This document shows positions 8,189 to 63,096 of a DNA stretch of 64,000 nucleotides, piece by piece. A program made the translations under genes and the position numbers. Every line of letters starts with the position of its first letter. The stretch's first letter is position 1. The notes below the pieces were generated by a model. It was given only the letters and a program-made list of their open reading frames with translations, made no database searches and was not told the DNA's origin. This stretch comes from Candidatus Latescibacterota bacterium (GTDB lineage Bacteria > Latescibacterota > UBA2968). The stretch lies in assembly GCA_965198115.1 (NCBI GenBank), contig OZ240241.1, forward strand, positions 2,816,001-2,880,000, read 5' to 3'.

Positions 8189-8943
8189 AAACACTGCGCC
8201 ACCGAGACACACTGAGCACTCAGAGGAAAACAACTGATCGTGGCGAGTCTCGAAGCCCGAGTAGGATGGTCAAACACGGATCCCTACCCAGACGACTCGA
8301 CCAGAAAATGCTCCTGCGGGGTGTTCACGACCTGTGTAGGATCGATCCAGATCTCGCTGAAGTCGTCCGACGACACGGACCGCCACCCCTGTGGGGACGC
8401 CAACCGGGTTTCGCCACACTGTTGCGCATCATTCTCGAACAGCAGGTGTCCCTCGCGTCCGGACGGGCGGTCTATCGCCGGATCGAAGGCGAAATCGGAC
8501 GTATCAATGTCCAGACCGTATTGGGCGCCGGGACTCGGGGGCTCCGTGCACTCGGTGTGACGCGCCAGAAGGCGAGTTGTTGGATCGAGGTCGCGAGAGC
8601 TGCCGACGATGGTCGCCTGAATCTGCGTCGGCTCGGCCAATCAGATGACGAACAGGCGCGTGCAGAACTGATGGACATTAAAGGCATCGGCCCCTGGACA
8701 GCGAACGTCTATCTCCTGATGGCCCTTCGGCGGCCCGACATCTGGCCGCCCGGTGACGTCGCCCTCCTGACCGCTTTGCAACATCTCCGAAAGTCGAAAG
8801 CACGTCCGTCGAACGAGGAGGCACTGGTCGAGGCGGAAAGTTGGCGTCCGTGGCGGGCGGTTGCCGCACGCATCCTCTGGCACGGCTATCTCTCCGGCAG
8901 CCTGACGAACACCTCACGCCGAACGCAAAAACCAGGGCAATGA
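8185..8943 (+). CDS. alkA: DNA-3-methyladenine glycosylase II (HhH-GPD); true start may be ATG near 8266
   Basis: ILEQQVS, IKGIGPWTA, D..P.GD and WRPWR motifs. Confidence 0.88.
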   Translation: MKTLRHRDTLSTQRKTTDRGESRSPSRMVKHGSLPRRLDQKMLLRGVHDLCRIDPDLAEVVRRHGPPPLWGRQPGFATLLRIILEQQVSLASGRAVYRRIEGEIGRINVQTVLGAGTRGLRALGVTRQKASCWIEVARAADDGRLNLRRLGQSDDEQARAELMDIKGIGPWTANVYLLMALRRPDIWPPGDVALLTALQHLRKSKARPSNEEALVEAESWRPWRAVAARILWHGYLSGSLTNTSRRTQKPGQ

Positions 8944-11335
8944 AACGCGAGCTCGCTGCGACATCCCTGGCCGTCCTCCTCACCTCCACGATCTGCGGAG
9001 CCAGCAACTGGGCTAGCTCGGGCGGACCCAACGGCGATTTCACCGTTCACGACGCGGGCACGCTCAGCCCCGATCGATCATACGATCTGAGAGTCGTGTG
9101 GCGAAAACCTCTCGGGTCAGGTTATTCCGCCATCTCCGTCGTCGATGATCTGGCCGTCACTGCCTATTCCGACGGCGAACTGGACTACGTCGTCGCCTTC
9201 GACTCCGAAACTGGGGATACCCGATGGCGTCACACGATCGGCCCCGCCTATCTCGGCCACTACGGATCGCAGAACGGTCCTCTCTCAACGCCTCTATTGA
9301 CAGCCGGTCGCGTCGTCGCCCTTGGCCCGCGTGGTCGGCTGTTCGCCCTCCACCTCCAAACGGGTGAACCGATCTGGGAAGTCGATCTCGTCGCGTCCCA
9401 CGGCGCGATTTCGCCTTTCTGGGGCTTCACCAGTTCCCCACGACTTCACCTCGATCGGATCCTCGTCCAGACGGGTGGCCAGAATGAAGAGGCGATCGCC
9501 GCGTTCGATCTTGCCTCCGGCCGCCATCTGTGGTCCACACTGAGTGACTCGGTCGGTTATCAGTCCCCCGCGATCGATCGACTCGGTGACCGGGACCAGG
9601 TTCTCTTCCACGGAAACGGGATCCTCAGCGGCCTGGATCCTACGTCGGGCGAAGTCCTCTGGTCATTCAATCACGGCGGCCAAACCGGTGCCGGAGCCAC
9701 GAGCGGTCATCCCATCCGAACGGGTGACGGACGCTATTTCATCAAGAACGGGCCTGGCGGCGTCACCGTCGACGTCCTGCCGGCCGAAGCCGGTTCGTAT
9801 TCTGTCGAGGAGGTCTGGCGGTCGACACACATCCGAAGCACCTACATCTACCCCATCCATCACGCCGGCCTTCTCTATGGATACAATCGCCGCATCCTGA
9901 CGGCGGTCGACGCAAATACGGGTGAGCGCGTGTGGCGCTCGCGTGAGCCCGGCGATGGGCTACCCCTCGTCCTGGATGGTCACCTGGTCGTCCTCACCAA
10001 GGAGGGTCGACTCTCGATCGCCCCTGCGAACGACCAGGGTTATAGCGAAAGCGCGAGTCTGCAACTCTTCGAGGATATCGTGTGGACACCGGCCAGCTTC
10101 GCGAACGGCAAACTCTACGCGCGCAGTATGGGCGAGATCGCGTGCGTCGAGATCGTCCCACACACTTCCTCGGTCGTTCAGGCGTCAGCCATCGATGGCA
10201 TCGTGCCCGGTAGCCGTTTCGCCGAGTTCATCGCCGAACTGGAAGCTGATCCCGAAAAGATGGTCCGCACGGACCGATTCCTTGGTGCGCAGGAGACCTT
10301 CCCCATCATCGAGGGAGACAGCCTCGCCCATTTCGTCTACCGGGGCCCCGGCGATGTCGTCACGATGACCGGGGATCACGTGGGTCGACGAATCGAAAAA
10401 CCCCTACATCGCGTGCCCGGCACTGACTTGCACCACTACTCGATTCATCTCGAGCCAGACGCGCGCATCACCTATCACTTCACGCGGAACCTGACAGAGA
10501 CGTTCACCGACCCACTCAATCCACGCCCTGACTTCCGGTCCTCGTTCTATGGCCGGGCTTCATGGTTCGCCATGCCTAAGTGGCACTCACCCGAACACCT
10601 CGTCGCGCGTTCCGACGGTATTCACGGACGCATCGACACCGTCCAGCTCTTTTCGCGACAGATGACACCGTGTCGATCGGCGTCTACCTGCCGCCCGGAT
10701 ACGATCGGGGCAACGACCGTTACCCCGCCGCCTACGTACACGGTTCTCGAAGACCGCTCAGGTCGGGGATGCTCGATGTTTCGCTCGACAATCTCATCGG
10801 CGGTCGAGTTCGCCCCCTCATCGTCGTCTTCCTACCCTCGCTCATCGGTCGAGGCTATCAGCAGTATGTCGGTACGCACCGCGACGACTACAGGGACCGC
10901 TTCGTCGATCGCGTTGTCCCTTTTATCGACGGGACCTACCGAACGTCGACCCACCGCCGGGATCGGGCAAACGTAGGATCGACTTACGGCGGGTTCGCCG
11001 CCTTCTACGCCACCTTCTCACGCCCTAACCTGTTTGGGGGTTTGGCGATTCAGACGATGGTTTGGGACCAGGAGGTGGACGCGGCGCACACCTCACTCAT
11101 TCCACACGACTCATCAATGCCGTCGCTGCAGATCTATCTGGATTGGGGGAAATACGACCTGCGAAGTCCTGCCGAAGGCAACGACCTCGGGAAGTCGAGT
11201 ACCATTTTCGCACGTCGCTTGATGGAAAGGGGTTACGAATTCGTCGGAGGGATGGTCAACGACGGATCGGGCTGGGCAAGCTGGCGCAACAGGACGGATC
11301 GTGTATTCGAGACGCTCTTTCCGTTGAACGATTGA
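8940..11335 (+). CDS. Secreted PQQ-type beta-propeller fused to Fes-like esterase; frameshift near 10655
   Basis: Propeller repeats, DPLNP motif, then VYLPPGY and G.T.GG in ORF 10580-11335. Confidence 0.72.
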
Positions 11336-47875: not shown

Positions 47876-49249
47876 GAGCTATAATCAAAAGGTGTGGAAA
47901 AAGAGAAAGGGCGACCCTACCCTTCCCGTGAGATAGTTGATTCACACAAAACCGGGTGAGAGGCCCGGTTGGGAAGGAGGATCGCCGTGAAGGAACATAC
48001 GCATAGAGCCCCATTGAAGTCCATGCCGACGTGGGAGACGGTTGACGATTGGATCCGTGAAGAGATCCAGGGCCGGTTCCAGTCCATTCTGGAGGAGGAG
48101 GCGACCGCGTTCTTGGGCCGGTCGTGGTATGAGCGCCGAGCCGAGGTCGATAGCTCCAGGGGCTACAGGAACGGCTACGGCAAGCCCCGGCGTCTCTCGA
48201 CGAGCTGCGGAACGATCAAGGTCCGGCGTCCCCGGGTTCGTGGTCTGGAAGAGCGGTTTGAAAGCCGCATCCTCCCCCTGTTCGCCCGGAGAACCAGGGC
48301 CATTGGAGATCTGCTTCCCGACCTTTATCTCCACGGTCTCTCCCAGGGCGACTTCGAGTTGTCTTTGCGTGCGCTGCTCGGTGATGGCGCGCCGCTTTCG
48401 CCGACCTCGATCGCTCGTCTTCGAGGGAAGTGGGAGGTCGACTTCCAGGACTGGAAAGAAAGGCGTCTGGATAATCGCGAACTGGTCTACGCCTGGGCTG
48501 ATGGCATCTACGTCAAAGCCGGGCTCGAGCGCGAGAAGGCGTGTCTGCTGGTCGTGATCGGCGCGATGAGCGACGGCAGCAAGGAGATCCTGGCGATAGA
48601 ACCCGGTTATCGAGAGTCTACAGAATCCTGGCTCACGGTGCTCCGGGATCTCCGGGATCGCGGGCTCGAACATCCTGTCCTGATCGCCGCGGACGGGAAT
48701 ATGGGCATCTGGGCGGCCGTTGATCAGGTCTGGCCAGAGAGCCGGCAACAACGGTGCTGGAACCACAAGATCCTCAACGTGCTCGACAAGGTCGCCAAGC
48801 GTGCACAGGCTGAAGCCCGCGCACTGCTCGTCCAGATCCCCTATGCCGGCACGAAAAAGGAGGCCGAGAAGCTCCGGAAACGCTTTGCCGCACGGTATCG
48901 CTCACAGTTCCCTGCCGCCGTGGAGACGCTCGAAAGAGACTGGGATCGGATGGTCACGTTCTACGACTTCCCGAAGGAACACTGGAAACACCTGAGAACC
49001 ACGAACGTCGTCGAGAGCCCCTTTGCTTCCGTTCGGCTTCGCACAAACGCCGCCAGGCGATTCAAGAAAGTCAGGAACGCCACGACTCTCATCTGGCGTA
49101 CGCTCAAGGTCGCAGAGAGCCGATTCAGGAAACTCACCGCGCCACACTTGCTACAACAAGTCTACGATCAGAAACACTCAACCGGACCGCAGGTCGAAAC
49201 CGGGAAGATGGCCGCCTGATTTCTTTTACACACCTATTGACCTGAGCTC
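47876..49249 (+). mobile_element. IS256 type A copy 2 (1374 bp); transposase 47969-49219
   Basis: Near-identical to copy 1; 9-bp TSD TTCACACGC. Confidence 0.95.
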
Positions 49250-49349
49250 TTCACACGCAAAGATGCAATTCTATTCTCTGGAGATTCAATCGAACACGAG
49301 GTTGGATGGAGAGAGAAAGCCACCTTAGAAGGACTGAATGGGTCCGCAA

Positions 49350-50731
49350 GGTGTTGTGCCTATCGTAGTTGAAACTTAGAGGGCTCCAAACTTACGTTGG
49401 GTAGACGTGTAGGAGCGTATACCCGTAAGAAAGGAGCCCAGATGGAGAAGCTATTTGTAGGCGATGGTGAAGTCAAGGTTGAGGGCGATGTCATCGATTT
49501 GGAGACGCGTTTGTCGGTGATCCAGGCGTTGATCCCGTTGGGTCTGGAGGCAGTGGCAGACCTCCTCCAGCAGGAGGTCGAGCAGCTCGCAGGCGTTCGG
49601 TATGCGCGCAAAGGTTCGGAGCAGGCGCATCGTCGGTGGGAAGCCAGAAGGGATCCGTGTATCTGATGGACCAGAAGCTCCCGTTAGACGTTCCCCGGGT
49701 GCGCGACGTCGAGGCCGACGCAGAGGTTTCCCTGGCTGCATACCGGGCTCTACAGACGCCCAAGAAGACGGACGAGGGGCTGTTGCTTCGTGTTCTCAAG
49801 GGGATCTCGTGCCGCAACTACAAGGCCTGTGCCGAATCGGTTCCAGAAGCGTTTGGTATCTCAGCGTCCTCCGTCTCGCGGCGGTTCATCAAAGCCACCG
49901 CGAAGAAGCTGAAGCAGTTCCAGGAGCGTCCCCTCGACGACTACGGCTTCGTGACCCTCTTCATTGACGGAAAGAGCTTTGCCGACGAAGAGATCGTGAT
50001 CGCTCCGGGGGTCACGATGGACGGCCAGAAGATCCCCCTGGGCTTCGTCGAATCGGCGACGGAGAACGAACGGATCTGCCGCCAGCTGATCCAGGACCTC
50101 ATCTGGAGAGGCCTGTGCTACGACCAGGCCTTCTCGTTGTGCTCGACGGCTCAAAGGGGCTCCGCAGTGCCGTCACCAAAGCCCTCAAAGGGTATGTGCG
50201 CGTTCATCGCTGCCAGTGGCACAAGCGCGAGAATGTCGTCAGCTATCTCCCGGAGAGGGAACGTCCGCGAATCCGACGGAAGCTCCAGAAAGCCTATGAC
50301 TGCGACACCTACGAGGAGGCAAAGGCCGCACTCGAATCACTTAAACCCGAACTGAAGCTGATGAATCAGTCTGCCGTAACGAGCCTCGAGGAAGGCCTGG
50401 AAACCCTGACCCTCCACCGGCTGGGGATGCTCCCGTTCCTGAAACGAAGCTTCCGAACCACCAACTGCATCGAAGCCCTCAACAGCATGACCGGCGAGCT
50501 CACTCGGAAGGTCAACCGCTGGAACAACTCTCCCCAGAGACACAGATGGGTGGCTGCCGCACTCCTCGACATCGAACCTCGCCTGAGACGCGTGAGCAGA
50601 TACAAACATCTTCCCCTACTCAGGCAAGCACTGAACAAAGATCTGAATCTCGACAACGAACAGAATGCTCAAAAGAGAGCCTGACCAAACTACGGGGCCC
50701 GATGAGTTTCAACTGACTATGGGACTTGACC
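49350..50731 (+). mobile_element. IS256-family IS type B; transposase frameshifted twice
   Basis: IDGK, VLDG, RCQWHK and RTTNCIE motifs; IR core AGTTGAAACT/AGTTTCAACT; 9-bp TSD GGTCCGCAA. Confidence 0.88.
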
Positions 50732-52274: not shown

Positions 52275-53695
52275 GGCTATATCCGGATCTCTCAACGAGA
52301 TGAAGTGGGTGAAGGTGCCGTGGTTCCTGGCATGGGGGCGCGGTTAGCGTGTGCGGAACCTCTTCGGAATCTGCTCAGGGATGTTTATGTCTCCGACGGT
52401 AAGGAAGATCATATCGTTGAATGCGTCGAGTGTGCGGAATCCGCTGGCTCGGTTCTTGACGATTTGGACGATTCGGTTGAGGCCTTCGGCGATGGCGTTG
52501 GTAAGACGCGTGTTCACGAATGCGAGGACGCCGAAGAAGTGCTGTCGCAGGGTCCTGACGAACTTTCGCAGGGGTTCACGTCGACTTCTGAGTGCGGACG
52601 TCGTCCAGCATTTCAGGAAGCGTTCGGCAGCCCAGGGCGCTTTGTATTCCCAGAACTGCTCGAACTCGTCCTTGAGTCTCCAGGCTCTATAGATTCGGTA
52701 GTTCGCCTTCTCCAGTGCTTTGAGTGTCCGAGTATCCCCTCTGGAGCGTGTCGCTGAGTGCCGGTAGAGGAGCCATCGGAGGCCCTTCATGGCTTTGCGC
52801 TCATCCGGGGCAGCTTTACGCCACTGGTCCTTACGGACCTCGTCAACGGCGGCATTGAGAGCCTTGACGATGTGAAAGCGATCGAGGACCAGCTTGGCAT
52901 TCGGACAGTGTTCCTGGATGGCTCCGATGTAAGCTTCGCTCATGTCGCAGCAGGCCCACTCGATCTTGGATCTCTGGTAGGGACTGAGAGCCTCTGTGAA
53001 GAACCGATCGATCGTTTTACGCGCCCTGCCGCGGCCAACCCACACCCACGCAGGAGCGGTCCAGATCGTAAACGAGCGTGGCGTACCTGTGACGCTTGGC
53101 GTAGGAGATCTCGTCGATCCCGATGGTTTTGAGCCCTCGGATACGATGACCTTCACGAAGCCGCGTGATGGATCGGTGAAGGAGATCCGACAGCGTCGAG
53201 GCAGAGATGCGCAGCAACTCGGACGCCGCCTTCTGCGTCATGGTCTGGCAGTAGCGCAGCATGGCATACTCGAAGCGATACGTCACCCGAGAGAACCGCT
53301 CCGCCCACGGAATCTCCTCGACCACACGACCGTGGGTAGGACACCGAATCTCCCGAGGATGGTAGAGAAGCCAGACCCTCCACCCGCACACCGGAATGTC
53401 ACGCCACCGACGCAGATGGGGCATTGTGCGGACGATTTTACCTCGACGGCCGCACTCCGGACAACAACAACCATTCTTATGTGGCTTTACGGCGATGACG
53501 AAGCAGCTTCTCCCCTCAAACCACCAGCTGACAACACGGAACCCCTTGAATCTCAGCAGTTTCGATAGTAATCTGCTCCCGGTCATAGGTCGCACCCCCT
53601 TCGCTTTGATTGTCCTACACACACAACCAAGCGTAGGGAACGATCTATGACCTTGTCATTCTATAGTTTCACCGTTGAGAAACCCGGATAGAGCC
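52275..53695 (-). mobile_element. ISL3 copy 3 (1421 bp); transposase frameshifted near 53045
   Basis: Near-identical to copies 1-2 with one extra base; TSD AATGAAAA. Confidence 0.95.
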
Positions 53696-53814: not shown

Positions 53815-54327
53815 TCAGCCTTCGGTGCCTCCATCGCCCTGGTCTTGCAACTCACCAGCTTCCAAGATTCTGCCACGTTCCTGATAATTTGAAACGAGCT
53901 CTTCGATCGTGCTGTGGAGCGTGCATCCGGAATGGTCCTCGGAACCGCTCTCCTTCTCGAATGCCACGAATAGTGCTCCGAAATCCGGGCTGGTGATGTC
54001 ATACACCAGGATCGGGTTATACCGGCTGTCACGTATCGCCCTTCTGTAATACTCATCTCTGAACAAACGGAACTCGGCAGGCCTCGGCTCCTCGTCACCC
54101 ATCAGTTCCAAGTATCTTTCGGATTCGATCTTGGAGCGAATGTAGCCAGGAACGAAGAATTCAGGACGAGGAGCGTCGAGAAAATAGAGGGTCTGAACGA
54201 GTCCACCGTCCCCATCGCTACGGGGTCCGAATCCGATGCGCGCCAGCGCAGTCAGTCCGACGTCCGGGTCGATCTCCTTCTCGTGCTGCTCGAAAAACAG
54301 CTCATAGATGTCCGGGGGTTGATTCAT
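53815..54327 (-). CDS. Acidic hypothetical protein (170 aa)
   Basis: Open frame with protein-like composition; hairpin at 53704-53731 downstream. Confidence 0.55.
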   Translation of the reverse strand: MNQPPDIYELFFEQHEKEIDPDVGLTALARIGFGPRSDGDGGLVQTLYFLDAPRPEFFVPGYIRSKIESERYLELMGDEEPRPAEFRLFRDEYYRRAIRDSRYNPILVYDITSPDFGALFVAFEKESGSEDHSGCTLHSTIEELVSNYQERGRILEAGELQDQGDGGTEG

Positions 54328-54482
54328 TCACGATTCCCTACGCGTCGATGGTCTACTCGTTTGCGCCGCGAAGATAGTCTATCCAAATATGCGGCCGCCG
54401 TCGAGGCCGTCGTAGGTGTTTCGAGCTCGGGGGACGAATTAACCGACAACGCAAAACCCGACAGACAACCCAGGGCTCGCCG

Positions 54483-54527
54483 AAGAAAAGACCAACGGGC
54501 CACACAAATTCTGTGCAGCCCGTTGTC
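54483..54527 (-). terminator. Terminator closing the tRNA array
   Basis: CAACGGGCTGCAC/GTGTGGCCCGTTG stem followed by TCTTTTCTT. Confidence 0.75.
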
Positions 54528-54557
54528 ATTCCAGCAGCCCAAGACAGAGGGCATGAT

Positions 54558-54641
54558 TGGTGGGGCGCTACGGAATCGAACCGCCTATCCGAAAGGCACG
54601 AGGGTTACAACCTCGCTCTCATCCCACTGAGTAGACGCCCC
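54558..54641 (-). tRNA. tRNA-Tyr(GTA)
   Basis: CGAGG-TTGTAAC-CCTCG; long variable region; CCA. Confidence 0.85.
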
Positions 54642-54791
54642 TATGTTGGGATCGACCCTTGCGGGCCAACCGATGATTGGAGGAGGGCACAGGAGTCGAA
54701 CCCGCACCGTTTCCGATGGCGTCACGGTTTTCAAGACCGTTTCCAGTCCACACTGGGCTACCCTCGATATGGACGAGCCTGATGACGACAT
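54585..54791 (-). other. Ser-rich mini-ORF (MSSSGSSIS...) running into tRNA-Ser
   Basis: GAGGAG-5 nt-ATG; 6 of the first 9 codons are Ser. Confidence 0.5.
54678..54766 (-). tRNA. tRNA-Ser(TGA)
   Basis: ACGGT-CTTGAAA-ACCGT; long variable arm; C1:C72 mismatch; U73; CCA. Confidence 0.8.
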
Positions 54792-54807
54792 CGTGACTCC
54801 TCTGGTC

Positions 54808-54884
54808 TGGCTCCGGTGGTAGGATTCGAACCTACGACTGACAGTGGTTAACAGCCACCCGCTCTGCCACTGAGCTACACCGGA
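54808..54884 (-). tRNA. tRNA-Asn(GTT)
   Basis: GGTGG-CTGTTAA-CCACT; G73; CCA. Confidence 0.93.
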
Positions 54885-54889
54885 ACAGA

Positions 54890-54962
54890 TGGTAGCGGGG
54901 ACGGGAGTCGAACCCGCCAAAGCCGGGATATGAGCCCGGCGTGCGCACCAGCGCTCCCCGCA
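54890..54962 (-). tRNA. tRNA-Met(CAT), initiator-like
   Basis: CCGGG-CTCATAT-CCCGG with three G-C pairs; 1:72 mismatch; short D arm; CCA. Confidence 0.82.
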
Positions 54963-54969
54963 CAAGGTT

Positions 54970-55043
54970 TGGAGCGATCGGAGGGAGTCGAACCCTCATC
55001 ATCAGCTTGGAAGGCTGAGGCCCTGCCGTTAGACGACGATCGC
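54970..55043 (-). tRNA. tRNA-Gly(TCC)
   Basis: TCAGC-CTTCCAA-GCTGA; U73; CCA. Confidence 0.93.
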
Positions 55044-55112
55044 TCTGAACCCGACGTTGCGCGTCGCCTCGTTCCTCCTTGTAAGGCCGGGCATTGCGCT
55101 CACTCGGGTAAG

Positions 55113-55189
55113 TGGTAGTCGCCCCGGGATTCGAACCCGGACTGAACGCGCCCTCAACGCGATCCCTCTGCCGGTTGGGGTAGGCGACT
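55113..55189 (-). tRNA. tRNA-Leu(GAG), short variable loop
   Basis: TCGCG-TTGAGGG-CGCGT; 5-nt variable loop; A73; CCA. Confidence 0.85.
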
Positions 55190-55190
55190 C

Positions 55191-55267
55191 TGGTAGGGGC
55201 GGAGAGATTCGAACTCTCACTTTACACGGTCTGAACGTGCTCCCTCTGCCGATTGGGGTACGCCCCT
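55191..55267 (-). tRNA. tRNA-Leu(CAG), short variable loop
   Basis: GCACG-TTCAGAC-CGTGT; 5-nt variable loop; A73; CCA. Confidence 0.87.
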
Positions 55268-55272
55268 AATGT

Positions 55273-55346
55273 TGGTGCCCGCTGGAGGACTCGAACCCCC
55301 ATTTCGTGGTCCGTAGCCACGCGGTAATCCCTTAGCCTAAACGGGC
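55273..55346 (-). tRNA. tRNA-Arg(ACG)
   Basis: CGTGG-CTACGGA-CCACG; CCA. Confidence 0.87.
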
Positions 55347-55351
55347 AGTAC

Positions 55352-55425
55352 TGGTGTCGCGGGACGGATTCGAACCGCCACTGTCTGGTCTTCAGCCAGA
55401 GGTGCTACCGTTACACCACCACGAC
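55352..55425 (-). tRNA. tRNA-Phe(GAA)
   Basis: TCTGG-CTGAAGA-CCAGA; CCA. Confidence 0.9.
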
Positions 55426-55430
55426 AACAT

Positions 55431-55506
55431 TGGGGTGATCGATGGGATTCGAACCCACGGCGACCCGGTCCACAGCCGGGCGTTCTACCGCTGAACTACG
55501 ATCACC
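55431..55506 (-). tRNA. tRNA-His(GTG)
   Basis: CCCGG-CTGTGGA-CCGGG; G-1:C73 pair; CCA. Confidence 0.93.
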
Positions 55507-55510
55507 ACGA

Positions 55511-55597
55511 TGGGGCCGGTGGCAGGACTTGCACCGGCGTGGGGCTTACGCCCGGCTGCTTACAAGGCAGCTGCTGTCGCTACTGAGCCACACCGGC
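55511..55597 (-). tRNA. tRNA-Thr(TGT) with long variable arm
   Basis: GCTGC-CTTGTAA-GCAGC; variable arm GGGC-GTAA-GCCC; T loop TGCAAGT; CCA. Confidence 0.8.
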
Positions 55598-55606
55598 AGT
55601 CTGTTT

Positions 55607-55681
55607 TGGAGCGTCCGAGGGGAATCGAACCCCTGTCTGCGCGATGGCAACGCACCGTCTTGGCCGCTGGACCACGGACGC
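55607..55681 (-). tRNA. tRNA-Gly(GCC)
   Basis: GTGCG-TTGCCAT-CGCGC; U73; CCA. Confidence 0.9.
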
Positions 55682-55689
55682 TGTCTGTC

Positions 55690-55764
55690 TGGCGCCCCCA
55701 CGGGGAGTCGAACCCCGATTTGCTGATCGACAATCAGCTGTCCTGGCCGTTAGACGATGGGAGC
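55690..55764 (-). tRNA. tRNA-Asp(GTC)
   Basis: GCTGA-TTGTCGA-TCAGC; G73; CCA. Confidence 0.92.
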
Positions 55765-55765
55765 G

Positions 55766-55841
55766 TGGTGGACCGGGTAGGCTTCGAACCTACGATCTCC
55801 CGCTTAAGAGGCGGGTGCTGTGCCGACTTAGCTACCGATCC
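55766..55841 (-). tRNA. tRNA-Lys(CTT)
   Basis: CCCGC-CTCTTAA-GCGGG; CCA. Confidence 0.9.
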
Positions 55842-55856
55842 ACGATTTCAAAGAGC

Positions 55857-55931
55857 TGGAGGGCAGGGACGGAATCGAACCGTCGTTGAGCCGGGTTGCA
55901 ACCGGCCGCTTTGCCACTTAGCTACCCGCCC
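55857..55931 (-). tRNA. tRNA-Cys(GCA)
   Basis: GCCGG-TTGCAAC-CCGGC; U73; CCA. Confidence 0.92.
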
Positions 55932-56003
55932 TGGCGCGCCGTCGAGGTGTCGAGCCCCGCACACCGGGTTTTGGAGACCCGATTGGACGCCGGTCCCCGG
56001 CGC
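55932..56003 (-). tRNA. tRNA-Trp(CCA), reduced D arm
   Basis: CGGGT-CTCCAAA-ACCCG; G73; T loop CTCGACA; CCA. Confidence 0.75.
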
Positions 56004-56008
56004 GTATC

Positions 56009-56076
56009 TGGTGACCCCGGAGAGTCGAACTCTCAAGGTTCTTAACCTGATGCGTATGCCATTCCGCCACGGGGTC
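56009..56076 (-). tRNA. Truncated or pseudo tRNA-Leu (apparent anticodon AAG)
   Basis: Perfect acceptor stem and Leu-type D arm, but only 68 nt with no variable region. Confidence 0.55.
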
Positions 56077-56080
56077 GTGT

Positions 56081-56157
56081 TGGTTGGCGCGGTCGGACTT
56101 GAACCGACTGTCTCTCGCTTATAAGACGAGTGCCTTTACCCCTTAGGCTACGCGCCG
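56081..56157 (-). tRNA. tRNA-Ile(TAT)
   Basis: CTCGT-CTTATAA-GCGAG; C1:A72 mismatch; A73; CCA. Confidence 0.82.
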
Positions 56158-56163
56158 ACAAAA

Positions 56164-56238
56164 TGGTGACGACGGAGGGAGTCGAACCCTCGTCTTCTGG
56201 TTGAAAACCAGAGATCCTGACCGTTGAACGACGCCGTC
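56164..56238 (-). tRNA. tRNA-Glu(TTC)
   Basis: TCTGG-TTTTCAA-CCAGA; CCA. Confidence 0.9.
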
Positions 56239-56313
56239 TGGTGGCCCGAGCAGGAATCGAACCTGCCTCGAGCGGTTTAGAAGACCGCTGCCTCTCCAAT
56301 AGGCTATCGGGCC
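56239..56313 (-). tRNA. tRNA-Arg(TCT)
   Basis: GCGGT-CTTCTAA-ACCGC; CCA. Confidence 0.9.
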
Positions 56314-56315
56314 GT

Positions 56316-56392
56316 TGGTGCGCCCGACAGGATTCGAACCTGCACAGTTCAGATTAAAAGTCTGATACCCGACCGGATTGGGTGACGGACGC
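56316..56392 (-). tRNA. tRNA-Lys(TTT)
   Basis: TCAGA-CTTTTAA-TCTGA; CCA. Confidence 0.9.
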
Positions 56393-56443
56393 ACGGATTC
56401 CGTGTCTTCTCGTTTTCCTGTGTTTTCGTGGTCTGCGTTTCAT
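56354..56443 (-). other. Lys/Arg-rich mini-ORF (MKRRPRKHRKTRRH..., 29 aa) running into tRNA-Lys
   Basis: AAA x3, AGA x3, AGG, CGA and CGC within codons 2-13; weak GGA RBS. Confidence 0.4.
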
Positions 56444-56457
56444 CGTGCGTTCCGTTT

Positions 56458-56531
56458 TGGCACGGGGCTGAGGAATCGAACCCCAATTCGAAGAGTCAAA
56501 GTCTTCCGTCTTCCCGTTAGACGAGCCCCGT
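56458..56531 (-). tRNA. tRNA-Gln(TTG), first gene of the array
   Basis: GAAGA-CTTTGAC-TCTTC; G73; CCA. Confidence 0.9.
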
Positions 56532-56533
56532 AC

Positions 56534-56570
56534 AAAGAAAAACCCCATCAGATCGTGGTCTGACGGGGCC
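56534..56570 (-). terminator. Attenuator terminator immediately upstream of the tRNA array
   Basis: CCCCGTCAGA-CCACGA-TCTGATGGGG followed by TTTTTCTTT. Confidence 0.85.
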
Positions 56571-56620
56571 TCGGTGATTCTGCTTCTGCGATTGGTTCTA
56601 CGTCACCGTTACCCCGCCAG
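56560..56620 (-). promoter_or_regulatory. Antiterminator helix
   Basis: CTGGCGGGG (56620-56612) pairs with CCCCGTCAG (56568-56560); inner helix CGGTGA/TCACCG. Confidence 0.75.
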
Positions 56621-56738
56621 TCGAGTCTTGTGTGCCATCCAGGGCATACATAAGCGTCCACGCGGATTCAAAGGTCGCGTCGCCGCAATGGACCTGCCCG
56701 GATTTGCGTAGTGACGATATGGGAAACGATGATCTCAT
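56598..56738 (-). CDS. Putative leader peptide (46 aa) of the tRNA-array attenuator
   Basis: MRSSFPISSLRKSGQVHCGDATFESAWTLMYALDGTQDSTGGVTVT; last codons form the 5' strand of the antiterminator; RBS is weak. Confidence 0.6.
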   Translation of the reverse strand: MRSSFPISSLRKSGQVHCGDATFESAWTLMYALDGTQDSTGGVTVT

Positions 56739-57238
56739 CGAAGGTTCTGTCTCTTGTAAAAAGGTTTTCCGCTCCTCACACAACATTAGACACACCCAAC
56801 GTCAAAGCGGTTCCGCAATTCTTCCTCGAATCCAGATATTCCAGATGGTCCCGGCCTTCTCGGCAATCTTTTCTTACAGAACCACCGGGATATGGTCGGT
56901 TGGCTGTCTGTTTGCCGCCTACTTGGATTTATCGGCAAACTTCGAGCCAATCTTATCCAGTTCATCAAATTTTTGGTAACGTGCATCCCGAAGCCCGATC
57001 CTACTTACTGTCTTGACTCGGCATCCTTGACAGTGACAGCCTGGCTCGTTGCGAGCTGGTCTACATAGTCCTTGTATCTGCCCATTCTTACTCCGTGATT
57101 GCAGACGCTTTACCTGAGACGAGGACAGGCGCACCTGTGTTTCGTCGAGTTGACAGGCAAGGATCGGTAGTTTCGATGCCGATGACATCCACTTTCTGTG
57201 CAGTCTGTACAGTCAGGTTAGGGACGATATTGGCCTGA

Positions 57239-57868
57239 ATGTGCTTTCAAGCTGTCAAATGGCTCAAGAAACACCCTCTCGCAACGGTGACGCCCACTGG
57301 ATCGCTCCCCTCGCTCACAACGGCCGTGACTGGCGAGAACGTCAGGGGCAGCTGGTGGAGTCACCCGAAAGCGCACGACATCTACGCCGCCTGCCAGGCC
57401 CTGGATCGAAGCCCTTTCGTTCTCACCACCAAGTTGGTCAACCCCAAGGTCACCTTCATTCATCGTCGGATCTGGGGAGAGCTCTTGCGTGTGACCCTCG
57501 ATCGCGAGTGGGAAAGGGCCACGACCGTCGGCCTCGATCCCGCCACGAGAAGGATGCTCAGAAAAGTCAAGACTCTGGGTTGCGTTCGCTGGAACGACCT
57601 GACCGAGAGATCGCGAACAGACAGAAAGGTACTGCTCCAACGTCGACAAGCAGTCATCGAGAGGGGACTCGTTATCACGAGCCAAATGCACACCGAATCT
57701 GGCCGCCATACCGCTTTACTACAGTCCTGGCAGAACTTCTCCGAAGAGACAGCATCGCGACCCCATACAACCCTCGCCCTCTCCGAGGCGCTCGAACGGA
57801 TGAGAACCTGGGCGAAAGGTTGTGCGTTGACGATCGATGCTTTTTCCCGTGGGGGTGAAGCAGAGTAG
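57239..57868 (+). CDS. Hypothetical protein (GSWWSHP motif), possibly winged-helix
   Basis: Protein-like 209-codon ORF; start codon uncertain. Confidence 0.6.
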   Translation: MCFQAVKWLKKHPLATVTPTGSLPSLTTAVTGENVRGSWWSHPKAHDIYAACQALDRSPFVLTTKLVNPKVTFIHRRIWGELLRVTLDREWERATTVGLDPATRRMLRKVKTLGCVRWNDLTERSRTDRKVLLQRRQAVIERGLVITSQMHTESGRHTALLQSWQNFSEETASRPHTTLALSEALERMRTWAKGCALTIDAFSRGGEAE

Positions 57869-61716: not shown

Positions 61717-63096
61717 TGTAAAGCCCGCGGTTGTCTGGACACTCGGGTGAGTGTATTCAGGCGGCCTTTCGAGTTGCCGTGAGTGCGTTTCTAGCCTGTT
61801 CGGGCGTCTTGTAGCCGTGACGTTCGATGATCCACCTGTGGTTGTATCTGTCCCGAAACTCAAGGAGTGCGAGGCGCAGGTCTTCGATGGTACTGAAGTG
61901 TCTAACCCACAGGAGGTTTTCTTTGAGGGTACGGATGAACCGCTCGGCGCATCCGTTGCCTTCTGGCTCACGCACGAAACTCGGCGATGTTTGGACGCCG
62001 AGGAATGCGATCTCGTTCTGGAAGTCGTCAGAGACGTATTGTGACCCGTGATCGTGTCGGAGCTCCAGTCCTTCGGCGATGTTTTCTTCGAAGCCCCCGA
62101 AGTGTTCACGGATGCCCTGTCGGATCGGCTCGAGAGCCTCAAAGCGGTTGGCCGTCTTGGAGGCGTGAATGCCCACACACTCGCACGTGCAGTGGTCGAT
62201 CGCGATAAACACGGAGGCTCTGCCCTCGTCGACCGTGGGCGTCACAGTCAGGTCGGTGCCCCACATCTGATCGGGCTTCTCGGTCGTAATCGTGCCATCG
62301 TGGGCTCGTCGTTCGCGACGCCGTCCTGGACGCGCCTGGAGCCCGTTTTCACGCATCAACCGGCGGACCCGATCCTTTGACGTCCGCATACCGTGAAAGC
62401 GAAGCCTGGCCCAGATCTTGCGGTATCCTTCGCCGTGGAAGGGTGACGCGTCGATCTCCTGCTGAATGAGGGAGACCAATTCCTCATCGGTACCCGCTCC
62501 GACCGGGCCTCGCTTCCGGGGTTGCCGAAGATCGGTTACGGATGAACGACGAAGCTGGCTGTGCACCGTGGAACGGGGTATCTGCAACACTTTGCACACG
62601 CGTTTAATGCTGTAGCGTCTCCCCGTGGAGGGCGAAAGGACCTCACTCATTTCCGCGACCTCCGATGCGCCAAAGGGCGGCGGGCTTCCAGACGATCGAT
62701 TCTTTGTTGCAGCAGCTCGTTGTCCATCGTGAGCTCGCCAATCTTCGCCTGGAGGTCCTTGACCCTCTCGTCACGCTCGTCGCTCGGACGAGAGCGTAGT
62801 GCGGCCTGGGCGCCAGAGTGGAACTGATCGCGCCACTCGCTCAATTTAGCTGCCGTTACTCCCAGATCGCGAGAGACGCTGTCGAGGCTCTCGCCACGCA
62901 TCACACGTAATACGGCTTCGGCCTTCTTCTTCACGGAGAAACGACCCTGCGAAGTCGCGCTTGGATCGGCTGGGCCTCCGCTCGCTCTCGCTCGCTCCGC
63001 CCCAACCGATCCCCTGGTAGCCTTGTTCATGGTGGACCCTCCTTTTCGACCTACTGTAGGTCAACGGAGTGTCCAAGAAAACCCCGGGGCGCTGGA
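61717..63096 (-). mobile_element. IS3-family IS; orfA 62647-63030, orfB 61757-62650
   Basis: GYRKI, W.TD, HDHGSQY and NG.AERF DDE motifs; ATGA overlap; imperfect IRs ending GGACACT; no TSD. Confidence 0.9.

Follow-up and report, generated by a model that had tools for sequence, protein, structure and literature searches.

A putative serine-codon sensor ahead of tRNA-Ser(UGA) in a long tRNA array of Candidatus Latescibacterota

It is an open question how cells adjust the supply of an individual tRNA to the demand for its codons, and another how silent tRNA arrays are activated. The described systems that come closest to the element discussed here are the leader-peptide attenuators of amino-acid operons, as treated for trp and his in the relevant passages of PMC1183508. 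Further parallels of the ribosome-mediated type are found in the corresponding passages on cysS (uORFC-8-2; PMC8632094) and on the ilvB uORF (PMC11109978). A related case is the uORF of whiB7 in mycobacteria, where stalling caused by shortages of many amino acids or tRNAs is reported to lead to antitermination (bioRxiv 10.1101/2023.06.02.543512).

The genomic setting has its own parallel in the L-arrays, such as the trn operon of Anabaena PCC 7120, which are described in the relevant passages of PMC8421152 as long, horizontally spread and supernumerary, with some pseudogenes among their tRNAs. The array of Anabaena PCC 7120 is induced by translational stress, and the control described for it in the passages used here is a promoter repressor, TrcR (PMC10272220). 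Internal mini-ORFs are not mentioned in the main-text passages of either paper. Leader and attenuation are absent from the main text of PMC10272220, as are leader, spacer and RNase P from that of PMC8421152, and the passages of a tRNA-array survey (PMC4758250) contain no mention of leader, ORF or attenuation. Indeed, we found no description of mini-ORFs that gate tRNA genes in the full-text literature, a collection with few subscription journals and no supplements.

The array and its 5' leader

The window, by which we mean the whole stretch of 64,000 nucleotides analysed here, belongs to a genome of 8.4 Mb in a single contig, with 74 tRNA genes in all, 54 of them outside the array. The array itself occupies 54558..56531 on the minus strand, as do all features of the window given below unless the plus strand is stated. 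It consists of 20 genes called by ARAGORN together with weak Trp(CCA), Leu(UAA)-like and decayed Val(UAC) copies. With its 20 called genes co-oriented and non-periodic, its patchy occurrence and its supernumerary content, it is like the L-arrays as they appear in the passages of PMC8421152. Ser(UGA), Tyr(GUA), Asn(GUU), Lys(UUU) and Arg(UCU) are all encoded elsewhere in the genome as well, a further tRNA-Ser(UGA) being located at C1:195067.

A homologous array or a relic of one is present in 2 of the 167 other genomes of the phylum. G052, from the same order, has a homologous array of 31-32 genes, the window's being the shorter, and G001, from the same genus, has a three-gene relic (L032 3067-3354, plus strand) with the Leu anticodon AAG versus CAG in the window. 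The last gene of the window's array is tRNA-Tyr(GUA) at 54558..54641. It is 90% identical to a copy in the array of G052 that occupies another position there, and a scan of the genome collection with a tRNA-Tyr stretch gave one match, G052. The array ends with a hairpin resembling an intrinsic terminator (54493..54525), and no sigma-70-like promoter was detected in 54200-57300.

Several tRNAs of the array have unusual shapes. The Leu tRNAs (CAG, GAG and UAA-like; 55113-55267 and about 56004-56080) have short variable loops and no long class II arm, a long arm is found in tRNA-Thr(UGU) at 55511-55597, and the D arms of tRNA-Met (54890-54962) and Trp (55932-56003) are shrunken. The decayed tRNA-Val(UAC) at 55044-55112, where G052 has an intact gene, folds into one long hairpin (z -3.4) and contains a perfect SD-like AAGGAGG derived from the anticodon arm. 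The spacer between tRNA-Ser and tRNA-Tyr (54642-54677) forms a 9-bp hairpin with a GCAA loop followed by CCA (z -2.6), and this hairpin is absent in two sets of related contigs, X6 and X7. Insertion-sequence genes lie around the array at 53017-53622, at 47969-50684 (plus strand) and at 61757-62650. An ISL3 transposase, in two pieces by Pfam, flanks the array, and the others are by eye of the IS256 and IS3 types. The flanking ORFs of 170 aa (53815-54327) and 209 aa (57239-57868, plus strand) have no Pfam match.

In both the window and G052, a leader ORF and then an intrinsic terminator precede the first tRNA gene. The leader ORF of the window (56598..56738) has 46 codons for 19 amino-acid types, and the terminator (56539..56572) lies between it and the first tRNA gene. 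The leader of G052 (L031 ~9455-9661, minus strand) has 51 codons, uses all 20 amino acids and is 42% identical to the window's. It contains 41 distinct codons, a number that 0.02% of open genomic stretches reach; the 33 distinct codons of the window's leader are reached by 7%. The predicted probability of the window's terminator goes from 0.01 in ribosome-free RNA to 0.98 after a ribosome has passed codon 37, because codons 40-42, the predicted antiterminator strand, pair with the 5' arm of the terminator (8 bp). G052 has a 7-bp equivalent involving codons 46-48 in nascent RNA only, the equilibrium of the full-length RNA always favouring the terminator. Between its attenuator terminator and its first tRNA gene (L031 ~8880-9310, minus strand) G052 also has an ORF that we take to encode an IS200-like transposase. 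An alignment search with the 5' leader returned no protein matches, and there was no Pfam match. In our opinion, the leader ORF with its terminator and antiterminator is a candidate for a general translation-stress attenuator of an L-array, as far as this can be read from its sequence.

The serine-codon mini-ORF and its relatives

The Ser element is found at the distal end of the array, in a 41-nt spacer (54807-54767) between tRNA-Asn(GUU) at 54808..54884 and tRNA-Ser(UGA) at 54678..54766. An SD sequence GAGGAG (54797..54802) is followed after 5 nt by an ATG at 54791, and the frame opens with ATG TCG TCA TCA GGC TCG TCC ATA TCG, so that six of the nine codons are for serine and five are TCA or TCG. 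Codons 1-8 (54768..54791; MSSSGSSI, with four TCA/TCG, one TCC and one ATA) are referred to here as the core. The remaining frame (54585..54767) goes through tRNA-Ser into tRNA-Tyr, where its stop at 54585 falls within the variable arm, for a total of 68 codons. With regard to the spacer, SD, ATG, Ser codons and length of the frame, the initial annotation agrees with the sequence base for base.

The SD interacts with the 3' end of the genome's own 16S rRNA at -8.5 kcal/mol. One as strong or stronger precedes 16% of the first ATGs in 1,894 long ORFs and 2.8% of 5,000 sampled ATGs. Folded alone, the spacer gives a hairpin of -12.6 kcal/mol that buries both SD and ATG, a stability reached by 9 of 200 shuffles. 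By eye, 10 nt of the spacer also have an inverted match in the relic array of G001. No cis-regulatory family of Rfam was found across the Ser spacer or the leaders of the array. The tRNA-Ser itself is atypical: it has C1:C72 and a U discriminator, scores under the Rfam gathering score and is called by ARAGORN one base later than 54766. It may be decaying in this genome.

The peptide of the mini-ORF is probably not its product. A functional 68-aa peptide was considered and rejected: a protein search with the frame returned no match except itself, there is no Pfam match, and the frame is not conserved, its continuation beyond the core being incidental.

Starts of this kind are rare. Among the 206,792 ATGs of the genome, 8 are followed by at least five TCA/TCG within codons 2-9, and 7 have an SD of at least the same strength together with five or more Ser in codons 2-8. 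When the spacer is shuffled with its dinucleotides preserved, an ATG with five Ser codons appears in 713 of 100,000 sequences, and with an equally strong SD in 5 of 100,000. When the upstream ATG frames of all 74 tRNA genes are ranked by their cognate codons, this element comes first, and a pattern search through 168 genomes of the phylum gave a single occurrence, in this genome. Screening very many windows would, however, occasionally yield such a case, so conservation outweighs rarity as evidence.

For conservation we compared six of 13 listed sequencing runs, in which the relatives are represented by low-depth contigs (2.4-28). SD, ATG and codons 2-8 are kept, in altered flanks, in contigs of three other studies (X4, X6 and X7); in runs X3 and X5 the spacer has no coverage. 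Run X1 contains the window without any difference and may be its source. X6 and X7 come from two studies, probably represent one lineage, and differ from the window over 54673-54793 by four substituted letters and one gap. Three of the four differences in X6 are located in tRNA-Ser (54714, 54740 and 54766), so that no more than one can fall within the core of 27 nt. Upstream of 54793, the SD hexamer alone is kept out of 14 nt, its distance to the ATG now being 6 nt. Three contigs of X4 span the core, and in one of them the SD-ATG unit comes straight after tRNA-Met, tRNA-Asn being apparently missing; the shorter side of this joint (54793-54888) has 26 letters, under the caution line of the alignment tool. 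Taking all relatives together, none of the five covering contigs has a listed substitution in the core, each of them, those of X4 included, having 1-2 unplaced differences. No synonymous change is listed there either, so both constraint at the RNA level and recent common descent are possible. The decayed Val spacer, by comparison, had no coverage at 80% likeness in X3, X4 or X6.

The array of G052 has Ser(GGA), Ser(UGA) and Ser(GCU) right behind tRNA-Asn, with spacers of at most 7 nt and no Ser mini-ORF. Hence, the proposal to look for a conserved SD, ATG and Ser run near tRNA-Ser in homologous arrays has a divided answer: the unit is present in close relatives, where the spacing has changed from 5 to 6 nt and the flanks are new, and missing from the distant G052. 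In X6 and X7, a by-eye comparison with G052 reveals the 5' end of another Ser-type tRNA after Ser(UGA), so that the Ser mini-ORF heads a Ser block.

What follows the core is a local matter. The relatives have G at base 1 of tRNA-Ser and insertions of 1-2 nt at the junction of the mini-ORF with the tRNA, and their frames beyond codon 8 consequently differ. As a tentative reading of these sequences, codon 9 of X6 would be TAG, while X4 would continue in other frames. The connection drawn earlier between base C1 of the tRNA and codon 9, like the length of 68 codons, thus belongs to this genome alone. The idea that C1 is kept so that codon 9 specifies Ser was rejected. Nevertheless, judged by its sequence, the Ser feature as such is real, non-random and conserved.

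The array contains a second ORF of cognate codons, and G052 a third. In the window, the Lys/Arg mini-ORF MKRRPRKHRKTRRHGIR... (56354..56443; 29 codons) runs from a 65-nt spacer into tRNA-Lys(UUU). Seven of its 16 spacer codons are AAA, AGA or AGG, as in 9 of 20,000 shuffles of the spacer. Its stop is provided by the anticodon loop of tRNA-Lys(UUU), and tRNA-Arg(UCU) comes next. The counterpart in G052, MKRRSRKIRKSETR (L031 8582-8709, minus strand), has a like start, frame and stop despite different lengths of the spacer and the tRNA, with cognate codons at 5 of 13 positions (1,027 of 20,000 shuffles). The Lys/Arg mini-ORF is thus conserved across families, the window and G052 being the two instances, and its SDs are weak (-3.5 and -3.0). 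The third ORF, MNVRSDQDRIQIRT..., lies in a 174-nt spacer of G052 (L031 8250-8423, minus strand) that also has two repeated blocks. It includes two ATA codons and continues into tRNA-Ile(UAU).

A pattern scan of viral sequences gave 0 matches, and viral scans with the Lys/Arg and Ser designs gave 49 and 73 matches, none immediately before the matching tRNA. BLAST against plasmids and phages produced matches to single tRNAs or pairs only. A scan of metagenomes for the Met-Asn junction returned 8 loci with the orders Met-Asn-Asp or Met-Asn-Trp, none of them homologous at the Ser position.

Folding of the leaders and a possible gate

When the Ser leader is folded together with its tRNA, 27 leader-tRNA pairs are predicted at -49.9 kcal/mol and the acceptor, D and variable arms are lost; 14 of 500 shuffles match this stability. 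The leader has an 11-nt antisense match to the tRNA (20 of 1,000 shuffles) and pairs more with its own tRNA than with 7 other Ser tRNAs. The predicted probability of the acceptor stem is 0.0 with a free leader, 0.95 with the leader blocked and 0.72 with a ribosome, modelled as a 28-nt footprint, at codon 2, the position that puts TCA in the A site. This footprint alone restores all arms of the tRNA, the acceptor stem staying at 0.12 or below for codon 1 or codons 3-7. The gain in pairing as such is within chance, being equalled by 82 of 400 shuffles, by 176 of 600 synonymous recodings and, in a separate run, by 50 of 250 shuffles. Further, the acceptor stem is lost with 320 of 500 shuffled leaders too, the model taking no account of tertiary structure. 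The change at 54714 in X6 and X7 breaks one predicted leader-tRNA pair.

The Lys leaders are of interest in this respect. The 14-15 nt ahead of their ATGs form an antisense strand to the start of tRNA-Lys that spans the position where RNase P presumably cuts. In the window this segment (56445..56455) forms 10 bp with one bulge (6 of 2,000 shuffles), and in G052 it forms a 12-bp helix (1 of 2,000). The gain in leader-tRNA pairing is reached by 4 of 250 shuffles for the Lys leader of G052 and by 2 of 250 for its Ile leader. In these models, then, the folding evidence is stronger for the Lys/Arg element than for the Ser element.

In all four leaders, placing the first exactly cognate codon in the ribosomal A site increases the predicted native tRNA fold by 0.48-0.68. 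Shuffles equal this effect in 34 of 200 cases for Ser and in 38, 23 and 12 of 200 for the other three leaders, and the stall codon had been selected with the results already in view. The initial annotation held that the direction of the effect cannot be deduced from sequence. In our opinion folding does allow a direction to be proposed, stalling favouring the tRNA fold, although for the Ser leader the signal is weak against shuffles.

We believe that the mini-ORF is probably a serine-decoding sensor in a ribosome-controlled tRNA array. The more specific reading that we prefer, with a probability of roughly 45%, is based on the folding models: the Ser spacer would be a cognate-codon sensor that gates the folding and processing of tRNA-Ser(UGA). 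In the absence of a ribosome the leader would pair with the pre-tRNA, the SD (54797..54802) with the 3' acceptor end (54685-54680), the start region with the variable arm and codons 6-8 with the D arm. A ribosome that continues into tRNA-Ser would also hold the cloverleaf open. A ribosome paused at the first TCA codon would cover the pairing strands and leave the tRNA free, so that the cloverleaf is predicted to form. RNase P and 3' nucleases could then release more mature tRNA-Ser at slow decoding of TCA/TCG, and the outcome would be negative feedback on tRNA-Ser supply. RNase P RNA, like Rho, is encoded in the genome. An intrinsic terminator was rejected as the output of the Ser ORF: there is none between 54807 and 54558, and therefore its output is not classical attenuation.

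The Ser gate may further be seen as a second, block-specific layer beneath the 5' leader-peptide attenuator, which would open the whole array at slowed translation. Extended to all leaders, this becomes a two-level control by ribosomes. The leader of nearly all amino acids would open the array; Ser-UGA, Lys-UUU/Arg-UCU and Ile-UAU would stand behind antisense mini-ORFs of cognate codons, and a stalled ribosome would license folding and cleavage by RNase P. We offer this general scheme as a speculation, since we consider it rather doubtful in its entirety.

Other readings and the comparison with known attenuators

Another reading is that the spacer acts as RNA and is not translated, or is what is left of a tRNA gene that was lost and has collapsed, its SD and Ser codons descending from tRNA sequence. 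G052 indeed has an entire tRNA-Ser(GGA) gene at the position of the spacer, the hairpin of the spacer ends in CCA, and the decayed Val spacer provides a local example of an SD-like motif coming from an anticodon arm. Further, the variable loop and T stem of tRNAs often read as Met-Ser-Ser, 4 of 8 distinct viral matches being in a tRNA or tRNA-like stretch. Ten of the first 14 nt of the spacer are shared, position by position, with the final 14 nt of tRNA-Asn, and a core with no listed synonymous change also suits an untranslated element. However, a remnant would be expected to drift, yet the core is kept while the flanks and the Val remnant are not; in each of three different flanks the SD is at a distance from the ATG that would allow its use; and the Lys/Arg and Ile ORFs are left unexplained. 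When the spacer was aligned, anchored at its ends, to 219 tRNA calls, no parent emerged (128 of 150 shuffles score equally), and the Val positive control was missed as well. We consider this reading, in either form, unlikely.

It is also conceivable that the Ser codons are translated and sensed, but with an effect on how well the transcript survives, or on polarity through Rho, in the distal block of tRNAs. The evidence from rarity and conservation applies equally to such a mechanism, the genome has Rho, the folding signal of the Ser leader is weak, and no intrinsic terminator is present from the Ser ORF to the tRNA. On the contrary, the antisense helices of the Lys leaders favour direct pairing of leader and tRNA, and the unstructured stretch open to Rho is very short, while rut sites require about 60-80 nt. 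An output through polarity is, in our view, quite improbable.

Equally improbable is a product of chance, that is, a neutral spacer recently moved together with tRNA-Ser as one module and picked from very many windows. In its favour, the identity of the core could stem from a recent transfer, and the boundary of the module (54793) is sharp. Neither G052 nor 167 other genomes of the phylum have the element, viral tRNA-Ser(UGA) genes have no excess of Met-Ser-Ser (9 of 91 loci, none with an SD, versus 6 of 120 for a Met-Thr-Thr control), and six metagenomic arrays, actinobacterial-type or other, lack a comparable SD-led cognate ORF. Against it stand the 5 in 100,000 shuffles, an SD retained outside the identical module, and the other cognate ORFs, one in the same array and conserved across families, the other in G052.

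We return to the reading of the Ser spacer as a cognate-codon sensor. If it is true, a mini-ORF that gauges one codon family would set the maturation of the same tRNA, which would be a direct post-transcriptional feedback. With just 130 nt, the Ser element is amenable to testing, either in vitro or in a strain kept in the laboratory.

With respect to the known systems, two comparisons have to be kept apart. The 5' leader of the array, with terminator and antiterminator, matches the attenuator plan as presented in the passages cited (PMC1183508, PMC8632094, PMC11109978). Its closest parallel is the whiB7 uORF, which is not a parallel to the internal Ser ORF. The whiB7 uORF controls a transcription factor and is enriched in alanine, while the leaders of the arrays sample 19-20 amino acids. 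The Ser mini-ORF, having no terminator, is not a classical leader-peptide attenuator. It is nevertheless like the trp, his, cysS and ilvB attenuators, so far as the passages cited describe them, in that it is a short ORF with its own ribosome-binding site and cognate codons. In those systems the position of the ribosome selects the RNA fold, and for the Ser element a choice of this kind is predicted at a level that shuffled leaders also reach. Unlike them, it lies inside an array and abuts or enters a tRNA gene, and what it would control is a tRNA, not an enzyme.
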